The notes under the pieces are model-generated. The model had not been told where the DNA came from, ran no database searches, and saw nothing but the letters and a program-made list of their open reading frames with translations. Source: a virus (Duplodnaviria; Caudoviricetes). Taken from it: 30,808 bases of DNA. The DNA lies in IMG/VR virus record IMGVR_UViG_3300021517_000016, positions 1 to 30,808 of that record; one strand, given 5' to 3'. Of the stretch, positions 3,054-16,072 are shown in pieces; the stretch's first letter is position 1, and each line of letters begins with the position of its first letter. The position numbers were made by a program, and so were the translations under genes.

Positions 3054-3866
3054 CTAGCCATCGTATCCGCTTCCCCTGCTCTGAAGGGAGTCCAAATAGC
3101 GGTAGTTTACGTCCAGTTCGAGCTCCTCGGCAATAGCCTCGGCGTACGCTTTGAGGGTGAGGGGAGACATCGCTGGGGCTGAGTTCACTTCCAGGATCTT
3201 ATGCTCCCCTTCGGCTGTCACGATTAGATCCACTGCACCATAGACCAAACCGACGCTATGGACAGCCCGGATAGCATCCTCAACCCGGTTAGGGCGTAGC
3301 TGTAGCCTCGGGGTTCGGAACCTATAGCCTTGTGCGTGGTTCTTGATGTAGGGATTGGTGTTCTGCTCAGGGTAGTCTAGATACTTCCCCTGGATGCGAA
3401 TAGCGCGATCCCGGTAGACGTGGACTCGGTACTCCCTGGTATTCGGTACATACTCTGTATAGAGTTCGTGTGTGGGCGGGATGTAGTCCAGACCATAGCG
3501 ATACACACTAATGTTACGACCACGGGATCCCTGGCGGGATCTCCCCAGGATTAGCGAGTCGGAAATAAGGCTCCGCCCTGTAATAGTATCCACCAGGGAG
3601 GGTAGTGAGGCACCAAAACACGGGGTCGGGATGCCCGCATTCGACAAGGCGTAGAAGGTTGAAAGCTTGTCGCTGGAGGCGCGGATGGCGTCGGCTGAAC
3701 TCAGCAACTCCCGGGCCGAAGATTCGGATTGTCCCGTTACGGGATGGCTCGTGCCAAACCTTATAATATACCGGCATCCCGGAATAGATGATTGGGTCGC
3801 ATAGGGGACGCCCAAGCTCCTCGCTAGTCTCCGGCCCGTCGGCGCCGTCTCCCGACAGGTAACCAA
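3054..3866 (-). CDS. RimK-like ATP-grasp ligase (phiEco32 type)
   Basis: IIRFG, ASSDKL..F..L...GIPTP, GSRGRNI, EYVPNTREYRVHV, KNHAQGYRF, GLVYGAVDLI, LEVNSAP. TTG start 7 nt after GGGAG. Confidence 0.9.
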   Translation of the reverse strand: MVTCRETAPTGRRLARSLGVPYATQSSIPGCRYIIRFGTSHPVTGQSESSARELLSSADAIRASSDKLSTFYALSNAGIPTPCFGASLPSLVDTITGRSLISDSLILGRSRQGSRGRNISVYRYGLDYIPPTHELYTEYVPNTREYRVHVYRDRAIRIQGKYLDYPEQNTNPYIKNHAQGYRFRTPRLQLRPNRVEDAIRAVHSVGLVYGAVDLIVTAEGEHKILEVNSAPAMSPLTLKAYAEAIAEELELDVNYRYLDSLQSRGSGYDG

Positions 3867-4089
3867 GCATAATCTCCCTACAGGCAGGACAGTCTCCTCG
3901 TATTAGTGATGTGATTGAGTCAAAGTCAAAGTGAGCTTCGTTTGTGAAGGAATCTATCCCGCACAGGCTTGTAGGTCTTTCAGAACCGACGTTACTTAGG
4001 TAGTGTAAGGCCACCCCGTCATCGACTGTTGTTATCCATCCGGAACTATATCGCCTTGGGTTCAGAAATTCAGGCGAAATAATTAGCAT
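3514..4089 (-). CDS. Hypothetical protein with a possible Zn site (H...LCG...CPAC); 3' half overlaps the ATP-grasp gene
   Basis: Strong SD (GGGAGG, 7 nt before ATG). The N-terminal half fills the gap between genes; there is a 353-nt out-of-frame overlap with the ATP-grasp gene. Confidence 0.55.
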   Translation of the reverse strand: MLIISPEFLNPRRYSSGWITTVDDGVALHYLSNVGSERPTSLCGIDSFTNEAHFDFDSITSLIRGDCPACREIMLGYLSGDGADGPETSEELGRPLCDPIIYSGMPVYYKVWHEPSRNGTIRIFGPGVAEFSRRHPRLQRQAFNLLRLVECGHPDPVFWCLTTLPGGYYYRAEPYFRLANPGEIPPGIPWS

Positions 4090-4101
4090 TAGCTTGCCTC
4101 C

Positions 4102-4347
4102 CTATGCGCTCGGTCGGTTCATGATTTCTTTCAGGGCAACCCGACACCCAGAGCACATAGAGCCGGCTCTAATAGACATACCCTGTGGTTTGTACTCGCT
4201 AAGGCGAGTCCGGTTAAACGCCCCAAGGGGGCGACCACAAAGCCCTTGGTTATTTTGTCCGATGATACACCGCTCCGAACTGAATTCGCCGCTGAAAAAG
4301 CTACGATACCGCGTTTGTATAGTTACCGCAGGCCCCTGACGCCTCAT
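4102..4347 (-). CDS. Small Cys-containing hypothetical protein (LCG...CSGC)
   Basis: ATGA overlap with the amidotransferase stop; zinc-finger-like Cys spacing. Confidence 0.6.
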   Translation of the reverse strand: MRRQGPAVTIQTRYRSFFSGEFSSERCIIGQNNQGLCGRPLGAFNRTRLSEYKPQGMSIRAGSMCSGCRVALKEIMNRPSA

Positions 4348-5693
4348 GCCGGCGCCTCCGCAGCCATTTCACTCGACCACTCTGCCCATACCTCGTTCTC
4401 TACGTCACTGTAGAGTACATCGAGGTCATTGTAGAGTTCAGTGTGCTTCTCGCTTGTCACGTTCGCGTGAAAGAGCATGTACTGGATGAGCTGTTCGGGG
4501 ATGCCGGATGACGCAGCCATGCGGCTGATTGTCCGCTTATGGACGAAGGTGTCTAGGTCTGCGAGGTCAAGTAGGGACTCCCATTCGTTTTGCGAGAATT
4601 TATAGTAGTCCGCCGGACTGTTTGAGACACCAGCCGTCTCCTTCTCCTGGGTGCTCAGCATGCTGCGGCAGTCCAAGCACATATCGCCGTAGTCCAGCAC
4701 AAAGGCCATGTGAATCTCTGCGACGACGCCCTTACAGTGTCGGCATGTGTGCCACTTACCGTTATGCTCATTCCAGAACTCCGGGTCGGCATCCACCCTT
4801 TCCTCCCAACGGATAGCCAAACCCTGATTGGCAGCCCGAATCAGGCCTACTGCCTTCTCAAAGTCAGCAGTCTGCACGACCCCGTTCGGGGTCTGACGCT
4901 CCCAGCCGGTCTTACAGGCCGGGGCTTTGAAGTCTCCGTCCCACGACTTTGTGCTCACATACTTCTTTGTCTCGAAGTCGTCGAGACGCCTAATACCATC
5001 CTTGGTCACCGACAGTGCCACGCCGGAGATTAGGTAGTCCGTGAACATGTCCTTGTGGGGGACTTGGTTAGTGATAGCCTTCCAGGCTCGCTGGATCGCT
5101 ACCTGGGTCGAAGCCCAGACAACAATGTTCTCGGTTTCGATGGTGACGAGGGGACTAGTTGGCCCCTTGAGCAGCAATACCCGGTTCCGGTCATCGGTGT
5201 TCACCGCCGCGACAGCGAAAGATCCCGACAGCATCTTGGTAGCTTCCTGATAGTTGTCGAGTCCGTGGTGGTCAAGAGCTGCGGCGACTGCCTGGCTGTC
5301 TACCTCGGCCGATCGCTGAATACCAAGCTCCCGGAACACTTCGTCGTCGTTCGTGATGTGGCCGTTGTGGGTTAGAAATGTTGAGCCAAGCATCACCGGA
5401 TGGTTATTGGCCCACACACTCTCGTGTCCCTTGGTGACATAGCGGGTATGTGCCAGAGCGGCATGGCAGGTGTCGAGCAGCCGGCGACGAGCCTTGATGA
5501 AGGTAGAAGCGCTGAGCGCTTTCTTCTCGATGCTGATCTTGTTTGCTCCAACAGACAGGACGCCGGTAGCGTCTTTGCCTCGCGGCTCAATACCAAGTAG
5601 TAGTTCGTCAAGGAAGCGCTCCAAAAGGCCACGCTGCCCGCTTTCGTGCAACACGTCTGGGTTCTTTAGAAAGAACCCGGCAATACCACAAAT
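4344..5693 (-). CDS. Class II (Ntn) glutamine amidotransferase with a C-terminal CxxC..CxxC extension; ATT start codon
   Basis: In-frame upstream extension reads ATT-TGT-GGT-ATT-GCC-GGG = (M)CGIAG, 6 nt after AGGAG. Motifs RGKDATG, HTRYVT, NNHP, THNGHI, VDSQ, GSFA. Confidence 0.92.
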   Translation of the reverse strand: MCGIAGFFLKNPDVLHESGQRGLLERFLDELLLGIEPRGKDATGVLSVGANKISIEKKALSASTFIKARRRLLDTCHAALAHTRYVTKGHESVWANNHPVMLGSTFLTHNGHITNDDEVFRELGIQRSAEVDSQAVAAALDHHGLDNYQEATKMLSGSFAVAAVNTDDRNRVLLLKGPTSPLVTIETENIVVWASTQVAIQRAWKAITNQVPHKDMFTDYLISGVALSVTKDGIRRLDDFETKKYVSTKSWDGDFKAPACKTGWERQTPNGVVQTADFEKAVGLIRAANQGLAIRWEERVDADPEFWNEHNGKWHTCRHCKGVVAEIHMAFVLDYGDMCLDCRSMLSTQEKETAGVSNSPADYYKFSQNEWESLLDLADLDTFVHKRTISRMAASSGIPEQLIQYMLFHANVTSEKHTELYNDLDVLYSDVENEVWAEWSSEMAAEAPA

Positions 5694-5702
5694 AGTGTTC
5701 TC

Positions 5703-7589
5703 CTACTCGTCGTCATCTTCGATATCATCAGCAGGGAAATACTCAAGCCGGTCTTCGTCCTCGAACCCGTCGTACTCGATGTCCTCAAGTGGGACACTAG
5801 GATCCCGAGCCAGCGCAAGCTCCACGCCTCGTCGGGAGGCGGGATTTCGTGGGGCCTTCTTAGAGAACCCCTCTGCTTGTGGAAGATCTAGCAAGGAATC
5901 CAGATAGACCGGCCCGAGATTTACAAGCTGGCTCTGCTTACAGGCATAGACCAAGGAGTCCCGCTCCGCCGCCGTTAATGGCAGGTTGATGTGCATCCAC
6001 TCAAGTCGCGCTTTGATTCCCCTTTTCTCAGTGATCCTAAGCCCATTCCAGTTCTGTTCCCTCCAGGGAAGAAATACGAAGTCTTCTGGAACGAAGTCCT
6101 CCCGAGCGTGTGCCCAGGCTGTCAAGGCCTGTTGTACGGCCAGCCATGCGTGCAAAATCCGAGGCGTAATCTCGGCATTCCATAGCCGCCACTCAGCGGT
6201 AGCCTTACCAAGGTTGCACTGGCAAAGGTCAAACATCCCGGCCCTGTATGCCCCACATTCACAGTTGCGAATAGCGGACATGTAGTTTGAAAGATTTAGC
6301 CCATGGCGACTCGGTCTATATTCACGAGCAAATTCCAGCACCGAGGAATATGGGCCGTAATCATCCGGCCGAGAATAAGAAGAGCCCTGAATGGATCGGT
6401 GAGACTCAGAGCCGGAACCCGCCAAAAAGTATAGTGGGGCTTCGAGATACCGAAACATATGGTGATAGACCCACAAATCCCGCATGTTGAAGTCGTGAAG
6501 GTCGATGTGGATATGTCCTCCGGCACGGTGCGAGAACACGATATCTCCGATTTCACGCAGCCCACGCAGTACCTCGGTTACGCGAAGCAATGCTGCCGCA
6601 TGATTCTCGCTGTCCAAGTCCAGGAGGTAGGAGACAAGCTCCCCCCCTGAGACAGAGCTGTCTCTCTTGAGAACACACGGGGTACGTGACGTACTGTCTC
6701 CGTCTGCCGTGTAGCGGGCCAGTTGCCCGTGACCCACTAGACCGGCGCTATTTAGCACTTGGAGTGCAGTCGGGCCGGATCCGTCAAATTCCGTCTCAAT
6801 CGAGACGGTGCGAATCGGACGTGCGTCGGAGCTCGGCAGCAACATAGAGCCAGATGAGGGAAGTTCTTCGGGACTCCACCGCTCAAACTCGGCACGAAGC
6901 TCCGTCCGCTTGGCGACCTCGCATATAGGGCAACACCGGCCAACGAAGCTCCTAAGGACGACATGCCGTGTATGGGGGTGATACAACTCACAAACTGGAC
7001 ATATGCGGCCTATACAGGTGGTGCAATAGCGCCCCCCGCCTTCTGAAGATTCCTGGAGCTCGTCTTCCAAAAACTCCTGGGCACATCCCGAACAGCGCTC
7101 CCGTGGAGCGCAGCTCTCACACAGGGTGAACCGACTCCCTACGGCGAGAAGAGTATTACAGCCCTCTACTTCGCAGGCACGAAAGCAGTTGGCACAATAA
7201 CCGTCCTCTGACAAGGCCAGACCAAAGACGTGGCAATTCTCACATGCTGTTACCCTGAGACACCCTGGACATGCCCCGAGCGGGGCTGGCACCTCGCAAC
7301 TGAGACACTGCGGCTCGACCTCGGAGAACCAACGATCGTTGTTCGGGCTATCAGACGGCTCGAACGCCCACGTACTCCATACCAAGAAGGTCAGGTACGA
7401 TGTGGGGGAGAGATTCCCGATAGCGGTAGGCCTAAGTGCAAGGCCGTTCGCGTTCGCCCAATCGCGCAGTTCGAGGTACCGCCGACGCAACTCAACAGCG
7501 GAGATATTCAGCTCTCGCAGGCTTGCGGTGCTCTCGTCGATAGCCTGGAAGCTGTCGGGAAGCCTACTAATGGACGTAAGAGTCGGCAT
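5703..7589 (-). CDS. Putative amidoligase (COOH-NH2 ligase, Amidoligase_2-like) with a long Cys-rich N-terminal region
   Basis: C-terminal motifs SIETEF, KRDSSV..GELVS, GGHIHI, LNL, TAEWR; about ten CxxC-type pairs in the N-terminal third; directly upstream of a class II amidotransferase. Confidence 0.85.
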   Translation of the reverse strand: MPTLTSISRLPDSFQAIDESTASLRELNISAVELRRRYLELRDWANANGLALRPTAIGNLSPTSYLTFLVWSTWAFEPSDSPNNDRWFSEVEPQCLSCEVPAPLGACPGCLRVTACENCHVFGLALSEDGYCANCFRACEVEGCNTLLAVGSRFTLCESCAPRERCSGCAQEFLEDELQESSEGGGRYCTTCIGRICPVCELYHPHTRHVVLRSFVGRCCPICEVAKRTELRAEFERWSPEELPSSGSMLLPSSDARPIRTVSIETEFDGSGPTALQVLNSAGLVGHGQLARYTADGDSTSRTPCVLKRDSSVSGGELVSYLLDLDSENHAAALLRVTEVLRGLREIGDIVFSHRAGGHIHIDLHDFNMRDLWVYHHMFRYLEAPLYFLAGSGSESHRSIQGSSYSRPDDYGPYSSVLEFAREYRPSRHGLNLSNYMSAIRNCECGAYRAGMFDLCQCNLGKATAEWRLWNAEITPRILHAWLAVQQALTAWAHAREDFVPEDFVFLPWREQNWNGLRITEKRGIKARLEWMHINLPLTAAERDSLVYACKQSQLVNLGPVYLDSLLDLPQAEGFSKKAPRNPASRRGVELALARDPSVPLEDIEYDGFEDEDRLEYFPADDIEDDDE

Positions 7590-9456: not shown

Positions 9457-9834
9457 TTACAGATTCCTTTCGATGTGGTCGGCAATAGTGTTGAAGTCAT
9501 ACGAATCGCAAGGGGAGCACCCCTCGTCGTTCATGTCCGGAAGCACCTTCTCGAAGATTTCAAGCTCGCCGCGAGTAACTCCAGCCCACCTAAGAATCCT
9601 CTTTGGCAGTAGGCCACAACCCAGGTCTTCCTCACGATTACCCAACTTCAGGTTCCACCGACCCCCTTCCACACAGTACAAAACCCATTCCCCCGGCTGC
9701 TCTTCCAGGTAAAGGTCGGACAGAACTCCTAGGCAGCAGTAGGTGTCTTCCGAGGGGCGAAGATAGCCCTGCCCCCGCTTGTACTTCCCACTGCGAAGTG
9801 CAGCAACCCACAGGTCGCGAATACGCTTCTTCAT
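9457..9834 (-). CDS. Conserved phage hypothetical protein (WxxALRSGxY...CCLGV family), paralog 1
   Basis: AAGGAG SD; LWVAALRSGKYKRGQGYLRP...YCCLGVLSD...MND...DFNTIADHIE. Confidence 0.85.
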   Translation of the reverse strand: MKKRIRDLWVAALRSGKYKRGQGYLRPSEDTYCCLGVLSDLYLEEQPGEWVLYCVEGGRWNLKLGNREEDLGCGLLPKRILRWAGVTRGELEIFEKVLPDMNDEGCSPCDSYDFNTIADHIERNL

Positions 9835-9858
9835 GTTCTCTCCTTGTGAGGGCTGCCA

Positions 9859-10359
9859 TCAGCAGCCGTAGGCTCGATACTCGGGCGGATTGGTGGCAGA
9901 CATAGCTGCCGCTTCGCGCTCCAACTTGCGCCACGCCTTCGTGAAGAACCGAATACCGTAGTACCGACGAGCTAGGTCAGCTACCCAGGCCCGTCCCCAG
10001 CAGTTAGCCCACGCTTCGTCAGATACTCCACGGGCATGGGCAGCTTCGTGAGCGAGGATCATCAGAGCCCCGCCGTTCGGGATACCTAGCATGAGGTACT
10101 GGCAGACCTTAGGGCCTAGCCAGATTTCCTCACTAGGCGAGAAGGCGAACCCGTATAACTGGTCGCCGTAGGTGAAGTTGTACTCCGCCTGCACTGTGGC
10201 CCACTCTGTTGAGTCGGTGTAGCACCGAGCATCAACGGGCTTGCCAGCTACCAAGGAAGCCATCTGGTCAATCTTGTCCTCCGGCGGCAGCTGTTGGATG
10301 TTCTTCCCAGCCGTCCCAAGGCTCATGAAGCTAACTAGGACAGCGAGAATGGCGTGCAT
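9859..10359 (-). CDS. Exported zincin-like metallopeptidase
   Basis: Signal-peptide-like N-terminus; LAHEAAHARG followed by DExxA; GGAGGT SD. Confidence 0.75.
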   Translation of the reverse strand: MHAILAVLVSFMSLGTAGKNIQQLPPEDKIDQMASLVAGKPVDARCYTDSTEWATVQAEYNFTYGDQLYGFAFSPSEEIWLGPKVCQYLMLGIPNGGALMILAHEAAHARGVSDEAWANCWGRAWVADLARRYYGIRFFTKAWRKLEREAAAMSATNPPEYRAYGC

Positions 10360-10415
10360 GGCTTACCTCCTATGTGCTCGACCATGCCCACGGGATTGCG
10401 GGCATGGAGCAGCAC

Positions 10416-10475
10416 AAAAAAGCGAGCCCAGGGGAGCGAGGATTGCAGTCTGGATACCTGCGCTCCCCCGAGCTC
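10416..10475 (-). terminator. Intrinsic terminator-like hairpin plus U6
   Basis: GGGGAGCG (10431-10438) pairs with CGCTCCCC (10461-10468), extended by GAGC/GCTC; A6 at 10416-10421 reads as U6 on the minus strand. Confidence 0.6.
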
Positions 10476-11003
10476 TAAATAAAGCTACGGTTTAGGTGCA
10501 TCGGTGCGGTAATGCCAGCGTTAGGCTTAGTATCTCTTAGGCCCTTCCGGCTAGGCTCGTACGCTGTAGCCACCATGGTGGTGGGATCACTGAGCCTCTG
10601 AGCGCCCTAGGCAGATACCAGGCTTCCCCCTACGGGGAAGCCGCTTTGATCCAAAGGATCAAACCAGGGTCGCGCTGACCACCGATGCAGCACCTTACAA
10701 GCGCCATAAGCGCGTAGAGCACCGCACAGCGAGGTGCACGCTGTACGGATCCGGAGCTAGTTACCTAGCGGGGCGACCCTCATTCGAGGTACTCGTACAC
10801 TTTCCACCGGAGCATAATCTCCGTTACCTACAACACCTTGGACGGTGATAGGTGGCCTAGTAGAGTCTGCTGTCGCCGCCGGGTCATTATGGCCTCTAAG
10901 AGCCATCCCGGCCCTATATCCTCAATCGGTAGCTCGACTACCGAAGGGGCGCTGTCCCTCGTCGCCGCCCTTGCTATCAAGGGATCCGGCCGGGGATGTG
11001 CGC
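10416..11003 (-). ncRNA. Candidate large structured non-coding RNA or leader (about 590 nt), family not recognised
   Basis: More than 12 helices found by eye, including a nested multibranch domain closed by a 10-bp pairing (10497-10506 with 10680-10689), a GUAA tetraloop hairpin (10756-10769) and a candidate pseudoknot (10666-10673 with 10773-10780). Bounded by promoter-like and terminator-like signals. Confidence 0.6.
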
Positions 11004-11009
11004 CGTCAA

Positions 11010-11037
11010 AGTGTACCCGAATTTTCGGGGCCGACAA
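11010..11037 (-). promoter_or_regulatory. Sigma70/HrdB-type promoter candidate TTGTCG-N16-TACACT
   Basis: -35 at 11037-11032 and -10 at 11015-11010; predicted start near 11003, where the hairpin-dense region begins. Confidence 0.5.
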
Positions 11038-11200
11038 ACTCGTTAACGCAATCGCAATAATCCCCGCAAATCGCGGGTTTTTGTGCCGGATTTGGTGTCG
11101 CAATCGTTGCCGTAATGCGAAACGTTGCAAGCCCCGCGTGTAGGCTAGCGCACGCGCACGATAGGGTGCGTATACCTCGCTTACGCCGTGACTCGAAGGC

Positions 11201-11209
11201 AGGATAGCA
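11201..11209 (-). promoter_or_regulatory. Possible extended -10 promoter (TGcTATCCT)
   Basis: TGnTANNNT in non-coding DNA, pointing into the early arm. Confidence 0.3.
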
Positions 11210-11329
11210 GAATTCGCACACGCGGTGTCTTGGAGACGATAAATGCGCACCCCCATAGTAGTAGGGAATGGAACGGGGGCAGCACCCTATTCGACTAGTC
11301 GCATAAGCGCGTACCCGAGCGACCAGGGG

Positions 11330-11515
11330 CGGCTCTAAGGCCCTCTGCCGTTCTGACCCTATCCCGGTAGGGGTTCAAGCTTGCAGGCGCTTAGGAGCGC
11401 TTACAGGGACGCACAGGGGCATCGGCGCTCTAAGCCGTTCTAAGGCCCCGGTAGCTGGGGGGTAGTCCAGGGTAGGGCTGGGGGCTCGGAGGCTCTTAGC
11501 GTGGCTCTCAGGCTC
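11330..11515. promoter_or_regulatory. Two tandem 10-bp-periodic CTAAG...GGTAG...CTTAG elements
   Basis: GCTCTAAGGCC...GGTAGGGG...CGCTTAGGAGCGCTTACAGG and GCTCTAAGCCGTTCTAAGGCC...GGGGGTAG...CTCTTAGCGTGGCTCTCAGG; same layout as 2930-3050. Confidence 0.4.
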
Positions 11516-11583
11516 GTCCCAAAGGGACGACCAGGGTGGTGCAACCTGGCGAGACTCTTCAACCGTGCAGCCGATGCGAGGGC

Positions 11584-11611
11584 AAAAAAGAAGGCCCGCC
11601 GAAGCGGGCCT
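11584..11611 (-). terminator. Rho-independent terminator
   Basis: Minus strand AGGCCCGC-TTCG-GCGGGCCT-TCTTTTTT, just after the stop of 11638..11967. Confidence 0.9.
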
Positions 11612-11637
11612 CCTAGGGTGAAGCGGTGACGCTGGTG

Positions 11638-11967
11638 CTACTTGACGCGCTCGGCCAGGATCGAGCCGTTCGCGTTCGACTCGATGACCTGCCACGTGGA
11701 GCGACCGCGCTTCCCCTGGTAGACGAACGTCTCGCCGACGCGGTGAGGCAGTCCTAGCCGGGAGACGGCCCCGGCGGAGAAGGGAGACTGCCGACCGATG
11801 TGCTTTGCGGCCGCAGCGCGCTTCGCAGGGACGGTCTTCGCCTGGCGCTTCGGTGCAGGAGTGTCCCCACCGGTCGCAAGCTTCTCCAGCATGCTCGCCA
11901 CCTTGTCCAGCGTGGCGTCCGTCTGCTCGATCCTCTCCGCGAGGGATGCGAGGGTCATGCGTGCCAT
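11638..11967 (-). CDS. Monocistronic small basic protein (coiled coil, Lys/Ala/Pro linker, beta domain); possibly DNA-binding
   Basis: AGGA SD, GC-biased codons, its own terminator; N-terminal heptads and a KRGR motif. Confidence 0.8.
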   Translation of the reverse strand: MARMTLASLAERIEQTDATLDKVASMLEKLATGGDTPAPKRQAKTVPAKRAAAAKHIGRQSPFSAGAVSRLGLPHRVGETFVYQGKRGRSTWQVIESNANGSILAERVK

Positions 11968-12571
11968 CTTGTCCTACCTTCCCGGGCGGGTCTCGCCCTG
12001 TGTGTGGGGAGGGGCAGGGTGCCCGTCCCTCGGCCCAAAGTGTGGGGACTCTGTTTTATGTTGCGCATAGTTCTGTTTACTCTAGTGGTGATAACAGTAG
12101 GCTATTGAATGGCTGCATGATGCATGAATGCTGGAGTGGTGTGATGCGAACTCTAGATCTTCAACCCATCCTCCTCTGCTTCCCTATATATACGAGGCCC
12201 CATGCCCCCCTTTCAGGTAGTACTGTGCGAATAAATTAATCACTCTCAGACACCAACCCAACACAACCATTCGGGCTTATTTTCGGCTTATATAAAGGGA
12301 TTGTCTCTCCCCCGTAGGGGGAACCTTGTCGCCACTTACGCTTACAAAACCCCCGTACGGCCAATGTACGGTACTAGTGCGGCATCGTGCCCCTGGCTGT
12401 ACGGGTGGACACCCGACCGTACAGCCCAACCCAGCCTCTAACTGGGGGGGGCCTGTTGTCTAGTCCGCACGTTTTTCTAAGAAAGTCCGCATTAGCGGAC
12501 AAATCCAAGGTTTACAAAACCGCACTTTCAAACGTTATATACTATAGAGAGTATATTTTTTACTCCTAAGG

Positions 12572-12782
12572 CTATATAGTACTATTCAGTACTGTCCTGG
12601 CTGTCCGAAGGCTTCTCCCGACAGGGAGAACCGTAAAGGCCCGAAGGGCCTGTAGGACAAGCCGGTACCGCATACTTCTCTTTAGGTGTCTTCAGAAGGG
12701 GGCTGTTTTGGGACAGCCCCTCTAAACTTTCCTGTCAGTACGATTCAGTACTGCACTATTCAGTACTATTCAGTACTGTAAG
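12572..12782. repeat. Second GTAC repeat array enclosing a multibranch hairpin
   Basis: AGTACTATTCAGTACTGT at 12578 and 12762; 12736-12766 matches 2686-2716 at 29/31; hairpins TTCTCCC-GACA-GGGAGAA, AGGCCC-GAA-GGGCCT and GGGGCTGT...ACAGCCCC. Confidence 0.75.
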
Positions 12783-12793
12783 GGGGTGTTCCT

Positions 12794-12994
12794 TTGATGT
12801 ACCAGGGCTACCCAAGCTCTCCGAGCCCGCGAGGGACTCGCTGCTCCATTTGCGACTCCACTGCCGTCTTCATCGGGGACACCTGCTCCTCCTGCAACAT
12901 GTCAATTCGACGCGACCTAAACCTCGGCTTCCCAAAACTGGAGGCCTACCTCACCAAGTGGGCCGCATTTAGGGAGTGGGAAGGTGGGACCTAA
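12794..12994 (+). CDS. Small zinc-ribbon-like protein (CxxC...CxxC)
   Basis: CSIC...CSSC; G-rich SD; first ORF of the rightward arm. Confidence 0.6.
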   Translation: MMYQGYPSSPSPRGTRCSICDSTAVFIGDTCSSCNMSIRRDLNLGFPKLEAYLTKWAAFREWEGGT

Positions 12995-13178
12995 GTCCAC
13001 CACGACGCCTGAGTGCGTTCCTGACCGCTTCAATCGCTGTCTAGACGGCGCAGAGACCGTCATTCTCACCTGGGCGCACAATCCCGCAGCCGTAATCGGC
13101 TGCCTTATCTGCATTTTCCTACTTTTCGCGTGGGTTGCAGCTCGTCCGAGCTCCCCCGCAGACGACTCTAAGGAGTAG
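12984..13178 (+). CDS. Small membrane protein
   Basis: One hydrophobic segment (AAVIGCLICIFLLFAWVAA); overlaps the previous gene's end. Confidence 0.5.
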   Translation: MGPKSTTTPECVPDRFNRCLDGAETVILTWAHNPAAVIGCLICIFLLFAWVAARPSSPADDSKE

Positions 13179-13183
13179 CCAGC

Positions 13184-13396
13184 TTGTTCAACCCCTTCCG
13201 GCGCAACAAGCGCCGCGTTCTCATGCTCGTTTCTGTCGGAGAGCACCCGGCCGGCACCGTAACCTTCCTCCCCACCGCCATTGCCGACCGTTTCGTCGCT
13301 CGGGGCTACGCCGCAGGGGAGCTAAGCCGCCCATTTAACGAGCAGGAGCTCAACGAGCTCCGTTCTAACCCCCCTAGCCAGACCGTGAGCGTCTAG
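13184..13396 (+). CDS. Small hypothetical protein (possibly virion-associated)
   Basis: AAGGAG SD with TTG start; G.V..L....A..FV..GYA pattern common next to head genes; TAGATG coupling to the next gene. Confidence 0.7.
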   Translation: MFNPFRRNKRRVLMLVSVGEHPAGTVTFLPTAIADRFVARGYAAGELSRPFNEQELNELRSNPPSQTVSV

Positions 13397-13804
13397 ATGG
13401 CCTCTGCGCACTACGACCTAACGCTCAAGCGGTTTCTCGATGCCGATGACGACATGCTGGTGGACACCATTAAGGTCCGGCTGGTCCGAGTCTCCGCCTA
13501 TACCTTCTCCCAGAGCCACGACTTTCTCAATGACCTGCCTGCAGCCATCGTCACGGACGTCACTCTGGGCTCCAAGACCACTGATGGGGCCGGTTCGCAC
13601 CCTGGCTGCTTCAACGCCGCTGATGCCGTCTTTACCGCAGTCCCTTCCGGGGCAGCTATCGACGCCTTGGTGATCTACAAAGACACTGGTACCGCCTCCA
13701 CGTCCCCCTTGATCGCCTATATCGACGGCTTCTCCGTCACCCCGAACGGCGGCGACATCACCGTCCAGTGGTCCAACTCTAGCCCGTTCATTTTCAAGAT
13801 CTAA
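13397..13804 (+). CDS. Virion structural protein (fibre/spike-associated beta protein)
   Basis: DTIKVRLV...HDFLND...FNAADAVF...ALVIYKDTG...SPLIAYID...PNGGDITVQW, a widespread phage structural pattern. Confidence 0.75.
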   Translation: MASAHYDLTLKRFLDADDDMLVDTIKVRLVRVSAYTFSQSHDFLNDLPAAIVTDVTLGSKTTDGAGSHPGCFNAADAVFTAVPSGAAIDALVIYKDTGTASTSPLIAYIDGFSVTPNGGDITVQWSNSSPFIFKI

Positions 13805-13805
13805 T

Positions 13806-14645
13806 ATGGCCGAGATTGCAGACCTCTCCGCCCTCGTTAACCGTCTGACGGGGGGCAACTCCGGCACCCCGGAGCACCTGTTCTTCCACAAGCAGGAGCG
13901 CGTCAACGGAGCGCTTGCTGCCGCTACCGTCGCCGGACGCTGGACATCCCTCTGGCGCTACGAAGGGCAGCCGGCCCACGGAGCAGTGCAGGGCGCTACC
14001 GGAGCCGCTTTCGACAACACCACCAACGGCGGGCTCAAGCAGGCCGACCCCGGCGGGGGTCGCCAGAAGTGGCTAGTCGGCGCCAACCTTCACTCCAACG
14101 TCGCCGGCACCATCGTCCTCTACGACCGCCTGGCGGCGGACGGAACATTCTCCGGCACCACCACGACAGCCCAAACCGTCTCTTTTACCCCGCCGTCACG
14201 GTACTCCAGCGGCGTCGGCAACCAGGTCTGGATCGAAATTCAGACTGCCATCGGCTCTACAGCCACTACGGCCACCGTCAACTACACCGATCAGGACGGC
14301 AACACCGGCGTTATTTCTCCGACGTTCTCTATCGGCGGCGCGGGACTCCAGGAGGCCGAAAGGATCATTCCTGTCTCCCTGGCTACCGGCGACACCGGTG
14401 TCCGCAATGTGGCAGACGTAGACCTTGTCGCCTCTACCGGCACAGCCGGCGACTTCGCCGTGATCCTGGCACACCCGCTGGTCACCATCCCCGTCTACGG
14501 AGGCGGCGGTACCTCTCGCGACCTGATTTTCGGTGACCCCGGGGTTATCGAAATTCCCACGGACGCCTGTCTCGCAATGGCCTGGATCGCCAACGGCACT
14601 ACTCGCCCGCAGATTTTCGGCTCGCTTCACATGTTGGAGGCGTAA
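13806..14645 (+). CDS. Putative virion spike/fibre protein, paralog A
   Basis: Thr/Gly/Ala-rich; LYDRL, YTDQDGNTG, LATGDTGVRNV, TAGDF.V.LAHPL, DACL. Confidence 0.7.
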   Translation: MAEIADLSALVNRLTGGNSGTPEHLFFHKQERVNGALAAATVAGRWTSLWRYEGQPAHGAVQGATGAAFDNTTNGGLKQADPGGGRQKWLVGANLHSNVAGTIVLYDRLAADGTFSGTTTTAQTVSFTPPSRYSSGVGNQVWIEIQTAIGSTATTATVNYTDQDGNTGVISPTFSIGGAGLQEAERIIPVSLATGDTGVRNVADVDLVASTGTAGDFAVILAHPLVTIPVYGGGGTSRDLIFGDPGVIEIPTDACLAMAWIANGTTRPQIFGSLHMLEA

Positions 14646-15475
14646 TGCCCGTCGCAGACCTCGACACCTTCCGCTCTAAGACCGACAACCCGTGGCAGCC
14701 TGTCCCGATCACCAAGTCCGGCCCTACCTCGGTCGCCGCCGCGCGCGCGATCCGAAGCATGTGGACGGTAGCCCCATTCGCTGGCACCACCCCGGCCGGC
14801 GCTGTCGCCCCGTCAATGGCTACGACCGGGGCTATGGAAATCAACTTCCGCCAAAACCCCGGCGGTGGTAACGACCTCTGGTTGGCTGCAGTCGATGTCA
14901 TAAGCTCTGTGCCGGCAAACGTCGGTATGCATCTGATGCTCATCGACCGGCTTTCGCATATGGGCGGGCTTAGCGCGACGACAACTACCGCCCAGAACGT
15001 CAATACGGCGGCTTTGACGCGATATACCCTCGGCGCCGGCGTCATGATGGGGGTCGAGATCTACACACAGATCGGCACCACGGCGACCACCCTCACCGCG
15101 AGCTACACCGACCAGGACAACAACTCCGGCATCACCAGCCCCGTGATTACATTCGGCGGAACCAGCTACCGGGAAGTCAACACCCTGCTGGTGCTGCCGC
15201 TGGCAGAAGGCGACACCGGGGTGCGGTCGGTACAGACCGTGACCGTGGCGGCGACCACCGGCACCGCCGGCAACTTCGGTGTCACGCTGTTCAAGCCGCT
15301 GGCCTTGATCCCCCTCGTCTGCGGCATGCCGACCTCTTGGAACGCCTTGATGGGCGGCTGCGGGCAGTTGGCAGAGATTGCTGACGACGCCTGCCTTGGC
15401 TGGATGGTGGTTTGTTTCGCCGGGCAGACAACCTCCGCGACGATCCACGGCCAAGTCCGCTTCATCGAAGCCTAG
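14645..15475 (+). CDS. Putative virion spike/fibre protein, paralog B
   Basis: LIDRL, YTDQDNNSG, LAEGDTGVRSV, TAGNFGVTLFKPL, DACL; tandem paralog of 13806..14645. Confidence 0.7.
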   Translation: MPVADLDTFRSKTDNPWQPVPITKSGPTSVAAARAIRSMWTVAPFAGTTPAGAVAPSMATTGAMEINFRQNPGGGNDLWLAAVDVISSVPANVGMHLMLIDRLSHMGGLSATTTTAQNVNTAALTRYTLGAGVMMGVEIYTQIGTTATTLTASYTDQDNNSGITSPVITFGGTSYREVNTLLVLPLAEGDTGVRSVQTVTVAATTGTAGNFGVTLFKPLALIPLVCGMPTSWNALMGGCGQLAEIADDACLGWMVVCFAGQTTSATIHGQVRFIEA

Positions 15476-15478
15476 AAC

Positions 15479-16072
15479 ATGGCCTACATCTACCGGCGCG
15501 GCCAGCGGCGCGTCTTTGTCGTCCCCAACGCCGGCATGGCGGACAACCTGCGCGTTCTTCCCCTGGAGGCGGCAGCAAGCGCCCAGACGGTCACTCCGGC
15601 CGGCCTTGCATCGGCCAGTTCTTTCGGTACCGTCACCATTGTCCCGGGCAACGTCACTGTCGCCGTCTCCGGGCTGGCCTCAGCCAGCGCTTTCGGCGCC
15701 CCGACAGTCACCGTCGCAGGGCAAACGGTTACTCCCGCAGGGCTCGCATCCGCCAGTTCCTTCGGGACCGTCACCATCATCCCCGGCGGCGTTATCGTGC
15801 CGGTATCGGGACTGGCGTCAGCCAGCTCCTTTGGCGCAGTTACCATTATCCCCGGGGGAGTTATCGTCTCTCCCGCCGGACTCGCTAGCGCCTCCTCATT
15901 CAGCGCTGTCACGATCCTCACAGGCGGCGTCACCGTCACTGTTTCTGGGCTCGGCTCTGCCTCTCAGATCGGCAACCCCAACGTCTTTGGGGACTTCGTC
16001 CCGGACGGCTCAACCTTCATGCGCATCCTATCCCGCGTTCACTTCGGCAACAGGAGACACCTGAACCTCTAA
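15479..16072 (+). CDS. Repeat protein (six 23-aa repeats), probable fibre shaft
   Basis: The unit GLASASSFGxVTIxxGxVxVxxx is repeated six times with a 23-residue period. Confidence 0.75.
   Translation: MAYIYRRGQRRVFVVPNAGMADNLRVLPLEAAASAQTVTPAGLASASSFGTVTIVPGNVTVAVSGLASASAFGAPTVTVAGQTVTPAGLASASSFGTVTIIPGGVIVPVSGLASASSFGAVTIIPGGVIVSPAGLASASSFSAVTILTGGVTVTVSGLGSASQIGNPNVFGDFVPDGSTFMRILSRVHFGNRRHLNL

Follow-up and report, generated by a model that had tools for sequence, protein, structure and literature searches.

The window analyzed here, a 30,808-nt stretch of DNA from a podovirus-like phage, carries on its minus strand a candidate large structured RNA of ~590 nt (10416-11003). We put the probability that this is a real structured RNA under selection at roughly 85%. 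The segment is non-coding, has an exceptional predicted fold, comes first in the early arm, preceded by a terminator, and matches no Rfam family; at the same slot in related phages, there is an RNA whose helices covary. Like the large ornate phage RNAs, it is several hundred nucleotides long, non-coding, and multibranched in its predicted fold, and the best reading of its kind is a GOLLD/ROOL-like RNA that is a member of neither family.

From 13397 onward, the plus strand of the window encodes a Clp-type protease, the terminase, a P22/SU10-like portal, and capsid and tail genes, and the minus strand below 11967 encodes small genes, a 628-aa protein (p628), a glutamine amidotransferase, an ATP-grasp protein, a PD-(D/E)XK nuclease, and ERF. 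Across the stretches they have in common, the window is identical to a record of 49.9 kb that has terminal repeats (L001/L002, G053). The closest named phages are Arthrobacter Jasminevirus and Microbacterium phage Shocker, with a capsid identity of ~30%. This kinship, together with the Atlas neighbors of the protein encoded downstream of the segment, suggests an actinobacterial host; WhiB, sought as a host marker, was found in none of 4 records. The downstream gene itself has no Pfam or PHROG family. In run X1, contig depth over ~12.15-13.43 kb (about 12147-13434) was 61, versus 40 and 31 on the flanks, which hints weakly at a direct terminal repeat of ~1.3 kb like that of Jasmine. With a terminal repeat at this position, ~1 kb would separate the RNA segment from the early end.

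Elsewhere in the window, a 24-nt AGTACT-rich repeat occurs in four copies (12572-12595 and 12731-12779), and ~31 nt of it is common to other contigs in runs X1 and X2; it is possibly an origin or terminal-repeat signal. The cluster at 3054-7589 comprises p628, which is cysteine-rich and has no family, the glutamine amidotransferase, and the ATP-grasp protein. There are 23 relatives of p628, one with an amidoligase Pfam domain. The cluster possibly ligates peptides or forms amides. Two adjacent paralogous genes with no known family (13806-14645 and 14645-15475) are 43% identical over 208 aa.

The preliminary description found no credible gene in the segment, and codon statistics bear this out. 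ORF 10828-11256 (142 codons) has a codon log-odds of -0.25, compared with +0.22 to +0.38 for six neighboring genes; it lacks an RBS, has no PHROG or Pfam family, and reached a best Atlas score of 0.77. Together with two plus-strand ORFs, it falls in the non-coding range of -0.18 to -0.27. The genome around the segment had been called otherwise tightly tiled, which does not hold, as 11004-11637 and ~11968-13396 are likewise without credible genes.

Table 1. Features of the RNA locus in the window and members of the slot-mate family in related phages
Feature	Position	Strand	Remarks
Candidate ~590-nt structured non-coding RNA	10416-11003	-	Ends placed by the predicted promoter and the U-run
5' stem: GCCG/CGGC helix capped by CCCTTG-ATAG-CAAGGG hairpin (10968-10983)	10949-11003	-	Pair probability 0.85-1.0
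8-bp hairpin	10926-10944	-	Pair probability 0.96
Nested stem GCCGGG/CCCGGC, inner ATGGCT/GGCCAT	10878-10912	-	Pair probability 0.98, 0.94
Central multibranch domain, closing helix GGCGAC/GTCGCC, hairpin 10808-10823 inside	10772-10877	-	Closing helix 0.99
GCUAG-GUAA-CUAGC GNRA hairpin	10756-10769	-	Pair probability 0.98
10-bp hairpin, absent from the preliminary description	10722-10748	-	Pair probability 0.98
3' multibranch domain	10497-10689	-	Pair probability 0.87-1.0
15-bp 3' hairpin + U6	10416-10475	-	Pair probability 1.0
Stable hairpin, directly 5' of the next gene's GGAGG RBS	10366-10416	-	-29.8 kcal/mol
Downstream 166-aa gene, HExxH motif	9859-10359	-	Atlas look-alikes in actinobacterial and phage clusters
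Predicted housekeeping-sigma promoter TTGTCG-16-TACACT	11010-11037	-	Predicted from sequence
Unstructured upstream tract	11040-11588	-	z -1.1
Canonical intrinsic terminator of the upstream 109-aa gene	11583-11614	-	Only local call on the minus strand (11614-11589)
Upstream 109-aa gene	11638-11967	-	
Slot-mate family	L196:10068-10690; L171:3955-4580; L177:855-1650		

Both ends of the putative transcript had been assigned by eye. A strict consensus scan of 9500-12000 returned no promoter, whereas a looser pattern, drawn up once the site at 11037 was known, has this site as its single match in 30.8 kb. The 15-bp hairpin and U6 at the 3' end are firmly predicted, but they are non-canonical and were not called by the terminator scan; the element is a possible terminator and likely a leaky one. 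The upstream 109-aa gene ends in a canonical terminator, which would insulate the promoter of the RNA. The strong hairpin that follows the U-run (10366-10416) is a possible processing or stabilizing element. The unstructured tract between the upstream terminator and the promoter contains CCCTACCC (11477) and G(G/C)CTTAGA (11446, 11436, and 11341). With a hand-made pattern, motifs resembling CCCTACCC and CTTAGA were located after the first early terminator in six of six sequences (the window, G004, L170, L171, L177, and L196). The tract is likely a DNA-level element outside the RNA, and its motifs at 11341-11477 are possibly a packaging, replication, or regulator site.

All of the segments named in the preliminary description lie at the coordinates it gave, and the predicted folding is well beyond the level of shuffled controls. 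The minus strand of 10416-11003 has a minimum free energy (MFE) of -268.2 kcal/mol, compared with -228.5 ± 6.5 kcal/mol for 100 dinucleotide shuffles (z -6.1), and none of the 100 folds as well. With the 3' hairpin removed, z was -6.4 for the sense strand and -4.2 for the antisense strand (12 shuffles each); for the 3' domain alone, the antisense strand folds equally well (z -5.4 versus -4.0). Among 17 equal-length segments of the window, 10416-11003 ranks best (z -4.6; runner-up, -2.9; 10 shuffles each), and in 150-nt windows the folding signal is centered on 10300-10950. The segment is indeed packed with helices, with 25 short-loop hairpin seeds versus 7.4 ± 3.5 and a maximum of 21 in 500 shuffles. 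That the segment is a spacer, GC-rich and neutral, or a decayed element whose hairpins arose by chance is very improbable when 0/100 shuffles fold as well, 0/500 match the hairpin-seed count, and a conserved RNA fills the slot in relatives, even though no homolog was found and the individual long-range features, described below, are at chance level.

Most of the helices drawn by eye are found in the predicted ensemble: nine internal ones and the 3' hairpin have pair probabilities of 0.89-1.0. An exception is the TGTACG/CGTACA helix (~0), which the ensemble disfavors; it favors the pairing of GGCGAC (10877-72) with GTCGCC (10777-72) at 0.99 and the hairpin 10748-10722 at 0.98. The loop of this hairpin could pair with AGGTGC (10690-10695). 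The 3' domain is closed by a 10-bp helix (10497-10506 with 10680-10689; 0.92) followed by CAGCG/CGCTG (0.87), and holds a 7-bp inner helix, the hairpins 10645-10663 and 10621-10642, and a long nested arm that ends in the palindrome CCACCATGGTGG (10570-10581). Palindromes of 12 nt occur in 103/500 shuffles, a chance frequency. As a separate observation, the RNA hairpin at 10619-10640 and a hairpin of the divergent region at 12307-12328 are 86% complementary over 22 nt, which may be chance between two GC hairpins.

Two long-range features to which the preliminary description gave weight fared less well. The proposed 8-bp pseudoknot (10666-10673 with 10773-10780) is of a kind to be expected by chance, since perfect long-range complements of at least 8 bp occur in 460/500 shuffles (at least 10 bp in 79/500), and a repeated 9-mer, as in the doubled GGCGGCGAC, occurs in 263/500. 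At these frequencies, neither feature has weight alone. In addition, the strand 10773-10780 sits in the 3' strand of the central closing helix, and the two pairings are mutually exclusive; the other strand, 10666-10673, is unpaired in the predicted fold. Imposing the scaffold drawn by eye with the pseudoknot strands free costs 18.4 kcal/mol, and the bare pseudoknot duplex is worth -14.5 kcal/mol. Freeing both strands alone costs 10.6 kcal/mol, which, set against the -14.5 kcal/mol of the duplex before loop penalties, leaves the pseudoknot possible but unsupported. The central-helix and pseudoknot forms may thus be close in energy in the model, with nothing selecting either, and the pseudoknot itself is speculative.

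A strong z-score at such a locus does not by itself establish an RNA, as the Jasminevirus phages Adat and Jasmine illustrate. They resemble the window phage in the major capsid protein (~30% identical), in the divergent layout, with the early genes of Adat at the genome end, and in having a gap of ~690 nt beyond the first early genes. The unannotated gap of Adat (L214:43565-44253, 690 nt) has a z of -7.1, yet the Adat/Jasmine/Casserole alignment gives a covariation term of +0.91, with 7 of 177 pairs compensatory. The long terminal repeat of Jasmine is described as 1,330 bp, and the gap spans its inner edge (PMC5513430). Long inverted repeats and GGATA repeats lie at the terminal-repeat edge in the Adat gap, and the gap is kept in 8 Jasminevirus records. 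It has no similarity to 10416-11003. There, the promoter is at the gap's end, which leaves no room for a long RNA ahead of the gene; the window segment, in contrast, is downstream of its promoter and branched.

The Jasminevirus gap is one argument for reading 10416-11003 as a DNA-level element near the genome end, serving packaging, terminal-repeat duplication, or an origin, whose inverted repeats inflate the fold score. The helices are also mostly pure Watson-Crick, with 4 G-U among 137 confident pairs. However, besides its position downstream of a promoter, the segment has a predicted fold that branches and does not consist of long palindromic repeats; overall, folding is better on the sense strand, where there is a GNRA loop. 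The DNA-like motifs that are conserved occur upstream of it, at 11341-11477, and the weak terminal-repeat hint at ~12.15-13.43 kb is likewise outside the segment. We therefore regard a DNA element as unlikely.

No Rfam family reached the cutoff anywhere in the window. At E values up to 10, 10300-11700 gave 11 matches, 9 on the upstream terminator and 2 chance ones on 3' hairpins, and none within the body of the segment. The covariance model of the conserved GOLLD 3' domain (RF02032) had no match in all-family scans or in a targeted search. The ROOL model (RF03087) had none in all-family scans, and the targeted search, in which no control genome was positive, was blank too. RNase P RNA (RF00010, P4 core) was absent from the locus in a search that was positive in 11 of 14 controls, and raiA (RF03072) was absent from the locus in targeted and all-family searches. 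For twister-sister (RF02681), a model that a permuted form would escape, nothing was found at the locus and the sole match was at 15565-15635 (12 bits). All-family Rfam scans, whose scope is the unpermuted forms, found no OLE (RF01071) and no group I or II intron. ARAGORN and Rfam found no tRNA or tmRNA in the window and no tRNA in L001, L002, or L049. A permuted or degenerate catalytic RNA, whether RNase P-like, intron-derived, or self-cleaving, is therefore highly improbable. What would favor it are short motif resemblances that no search result backs: the T-loop-like GUGGAAAG, the GNRA hairpin, and the twister-sister-like GGGCGCUCA.

Homologs of 10416-11003 were sought widely. No credible match was found by blastn against 50,697 phage records or by nhmmer and blastn over 46 loci. 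DNA searches of 44 terminase-related and 9 nuclease-related records yielded only chance matches (2 of 14-24 nt and 6 of 14-36 nt, respectively). An exact 15-mer scan of viral contigs gave 93 loci, with extension only in the identical record, and a three-block pattern scan gave 34 loci, again with the identical record only. Single-sequence covariance models had no credible match (R1 over 17 + 35 sources, R3 over 35 sources); on G004 without filters, R1 and R3 reached at best 6.8 bits, and a genome-collection scan gave 3 weak unrelated loci only. Four DNA runs from two studies carry the 10416-11003 sequence with no differing letters; no RNA run turned up as a source of it, which carries no information on expression. 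The nearest terminase relatives (68%) end 1.8-2.1 kb upstream of the terminase gene, and the region is outside their records. With no homolog found, there is no covariation on the pairs of 10416-11003; the earlier proposal of a large structured RNA outside Rfam is the best reading, backed by fold and synteny, but the suggestion of a new class cannot be shown.

Several candidates were rejected along the way. L247 looks similar but is within a coding stretch. The slot segment of G004, which shares GCGGCGAC/GGTCGCCCC with the window, was matched by 1/100 shuffles in one scheme and 34/100 in another. A tblastn match of the 109-aa gene in L177 falls on the terminator hairpin. Five 7-mers are common to 4/6 slot segments, versus 0.8 ± 1.0 expected, and 6-mers are without excess; this sharing is suggestive only.

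Independent support comes from synteny, as relatives keep a promoter and a long RNA, in one family a covarying one, at the same slot. Relatives were found through p628 and nuclease searches and were counted when they were distinct, shared p628, and had enough upstream sequence; five qualified (G004, G045, G046, G047, and L177), and two fragments that were too short and two matches that were too weak were left out. All five have the slot order of the window, i.e., a small early gene with its terminator, a CCCTACCC/CTTAGA-like tract, a sigma-70-type promoter (TTGACA/G or TAGACA, 16-18 nt, TAnnnT), 550-800 nt of ORF-poor sequence, and an RBS. In none of the five is a hairpin-plus-U terminator visible by eye, and the RNA reaches the next RBS; only that of the window ends in a hairpin and U6. 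The gene downstream of the slot differs between the window phage and the relatives. The amidotransferase and ATP-grasp genes accompany p628 in four of the five slot-bearing relatives, and the fifth record (G046) ends inside p628.

The slot-mate family (Table 1), made up of three of the relatives' slot stretches, was assembled from the match of L177 to L196 (E = 5.6e-4) and of an L177 + L196 profile to L171 (E = 1.6e-43). L196 and L171 share 136 consensus pairs, 23 of them with changes on both sides, and the covariation term is -15.75 kcal/mol; this covariation is between two sequences only, and the core helices common to all three never vary. The family has no match in Rfam or among named phages. 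Its invariant core is GTGAGAGGGC.AGGTGG ... CGTCCACCCTTCC.AC..GTAAG, also given as GTGAGAGGG...CCACCCTTCC...GTAAG, and in the viral collection a pattern drawn from it found L196 and L171 only. On this evidence, the slot-mate family is better supported than the window's own RNA.

The window RNA resembles the slot-mates in slot, promoter class, upstream motifs, size class, and a few short words such as CACCG and CCGTAGCTT. It lacks their invariant core, and the family's profile and covariance models miss it. Its pairwise score against L196, one of 21 comparisons, was reached by 8/2000 shuffles, whereas that against the close homolog L171 was reached by 1621/2000. The slot thus appears conserved and its occupant not, though the occupants may share a remote ancestor. 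L170:1100-1810, whose score against L177 was reached by 5/2000 shuffles, is a possible distant member.

Other observations concern the slot-mates and their surroundings. The slot-mate strand GGAAGGGTG competes with another strand for the same CCACCCTTCC partner, which may be a switch in the predicted fold. L184:430-1000 contains fragments of slot-mate motifs, and its profile match is not significant. By eye, genes flanking the slot-mates (L170:1816-2445, L171:4590-5102, L177:1659-2144, L196:10701-11186, and upstream genes) share a C-terminal motif, F.PK..D.PA.N.QLY.LN..G.L, which is absent from the flanking genes of the window phage; judged by this motif, their product is a possible partner protein. 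Segments in the relatives' early arm that look tRNA-like by eye (L059:1370-1468, L059:2220-2255, and L170:5965-6040) were not called by ARAGORN or Rfam. L170:5640-6060 is a second ORF-free stretch and is mildly structured (z -2.5).

If the RNA is real, it may act in trans or in cis. We tentatively favor, at slightly short of even odds and by analogy with GOLLD and ROOL, a stand-alone early non-coding RNA acting in trans as a decoy or scaffold. The foremost alternative, credible but doubtful, is that the segment forms a structured 5' leader acting in cis on the early operon, operating by put-like antitermination, by attenuation at 10475-10416, or by stabilizing the mRNA or gating its translation. 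The put RNA of phage HK022 is ~70 nt, and occupants of 590-800 nt are far above this size; no RNA strand is seen that would compete with the 3' hairpin (pair probability, 1.0). The downstream gene differs between the window phage and its relatives, and Jasminevirus, with the same early arm, does without a leader of this sort, its gene following immediately on the promoter. On the other hand, the segment has the sole promoter-like site on one side and, on the other, the start of a series of early genes on the same strand, the relatives' RNAs end directly at the RBS without a terminator, and a strong hairpin adjoins the RBS in the window. The mutually exclusive pairings of similar energy, central helix versus pseudoknot, would also suit a leader. 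As a precedent, put, which is also structured and also opens an early phage transcript, is described as an antiterminator of early genes that acts as nascent RNA (PMC9378689). With a non-canonical terminator, and with the RNAs of the relatives continuing as far as the RBS of the following gene, a discrete transcript is not assured. As we infer from the relatives, the occupation of one slot by unrelated RNAs suits an exchangeable cargo gene more than it does a fixed control element.

GOLLD and ROOL are typically, though not obligatorily, near tRNA genes; the candidate here has no tRNA island, and the phage that carries it, which is podovirus-like and probably infects an actinobacterium, has it at the start of its early arm. 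GOLLD and ROOL are described as abundant phage-encoded RNAs of 600-800 nt that form protein-free assemblies or RNA-only cages (PMC12286853; 10.1101/2024.12.08.627333). The candidate is like them in being phage-encoded, ~600-800 nt in size class, non-coding, and multi-domain, with no function assigned (PMC12286853). In the candidate, pseudoknots and oligomers are hypothetical. OLE and raiA are also large structured bacterial RNAs, and OLE equals 10416-11003 in length, but their context is chromosomal, unlike the early-phage context here. A published survey of viral candidate RNAs covers 29-151 nt and required homologs (PMC10690425). The literature searched, which included few subscription papers, held no description of the 10416-11003 RNA or its slot.

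For the trans-acting RNA that we favor, the following course can be proposed. From the promoter at 11037-11010, which the upstream terminator would insulate, host polymerase would begin transcription near 11003, and the transcript would fold into the 5' stems, the central domain, and the 3' multibranch domain. The 15-bp hairpin and U6 would then release an RNA of ~590 nt, with some read-through into the early genes. The RNA would act in trans, probably early in infection, compactly folded and engaging host proteins as a decoy or scaffold in host takeover. Self-assembly as in GOLLD and ROOL, like the identity of any partner, is speculative.

GOLLD and ROOL have solved structures and no known job. 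The slot-mate family is uncatalogued and already covarying, and the window RNA is an orphan from an uncultured phage. In a bolder and rather doubtful extension, this group of phages would keep an exchangeable early large-RNA gene, with at least two unrelated, uncatalogued classes of 550-800 nt serving as RNA-only anti-defense or host-takeover devices in the first minutes, that of the window switching between its central helix and the pseudoknot. A large RNA placed first in the early arm of a small lytic-type genome, where relatives have a different conserved RNA, suggests a function as infection begins, which narrows the tests to be made.
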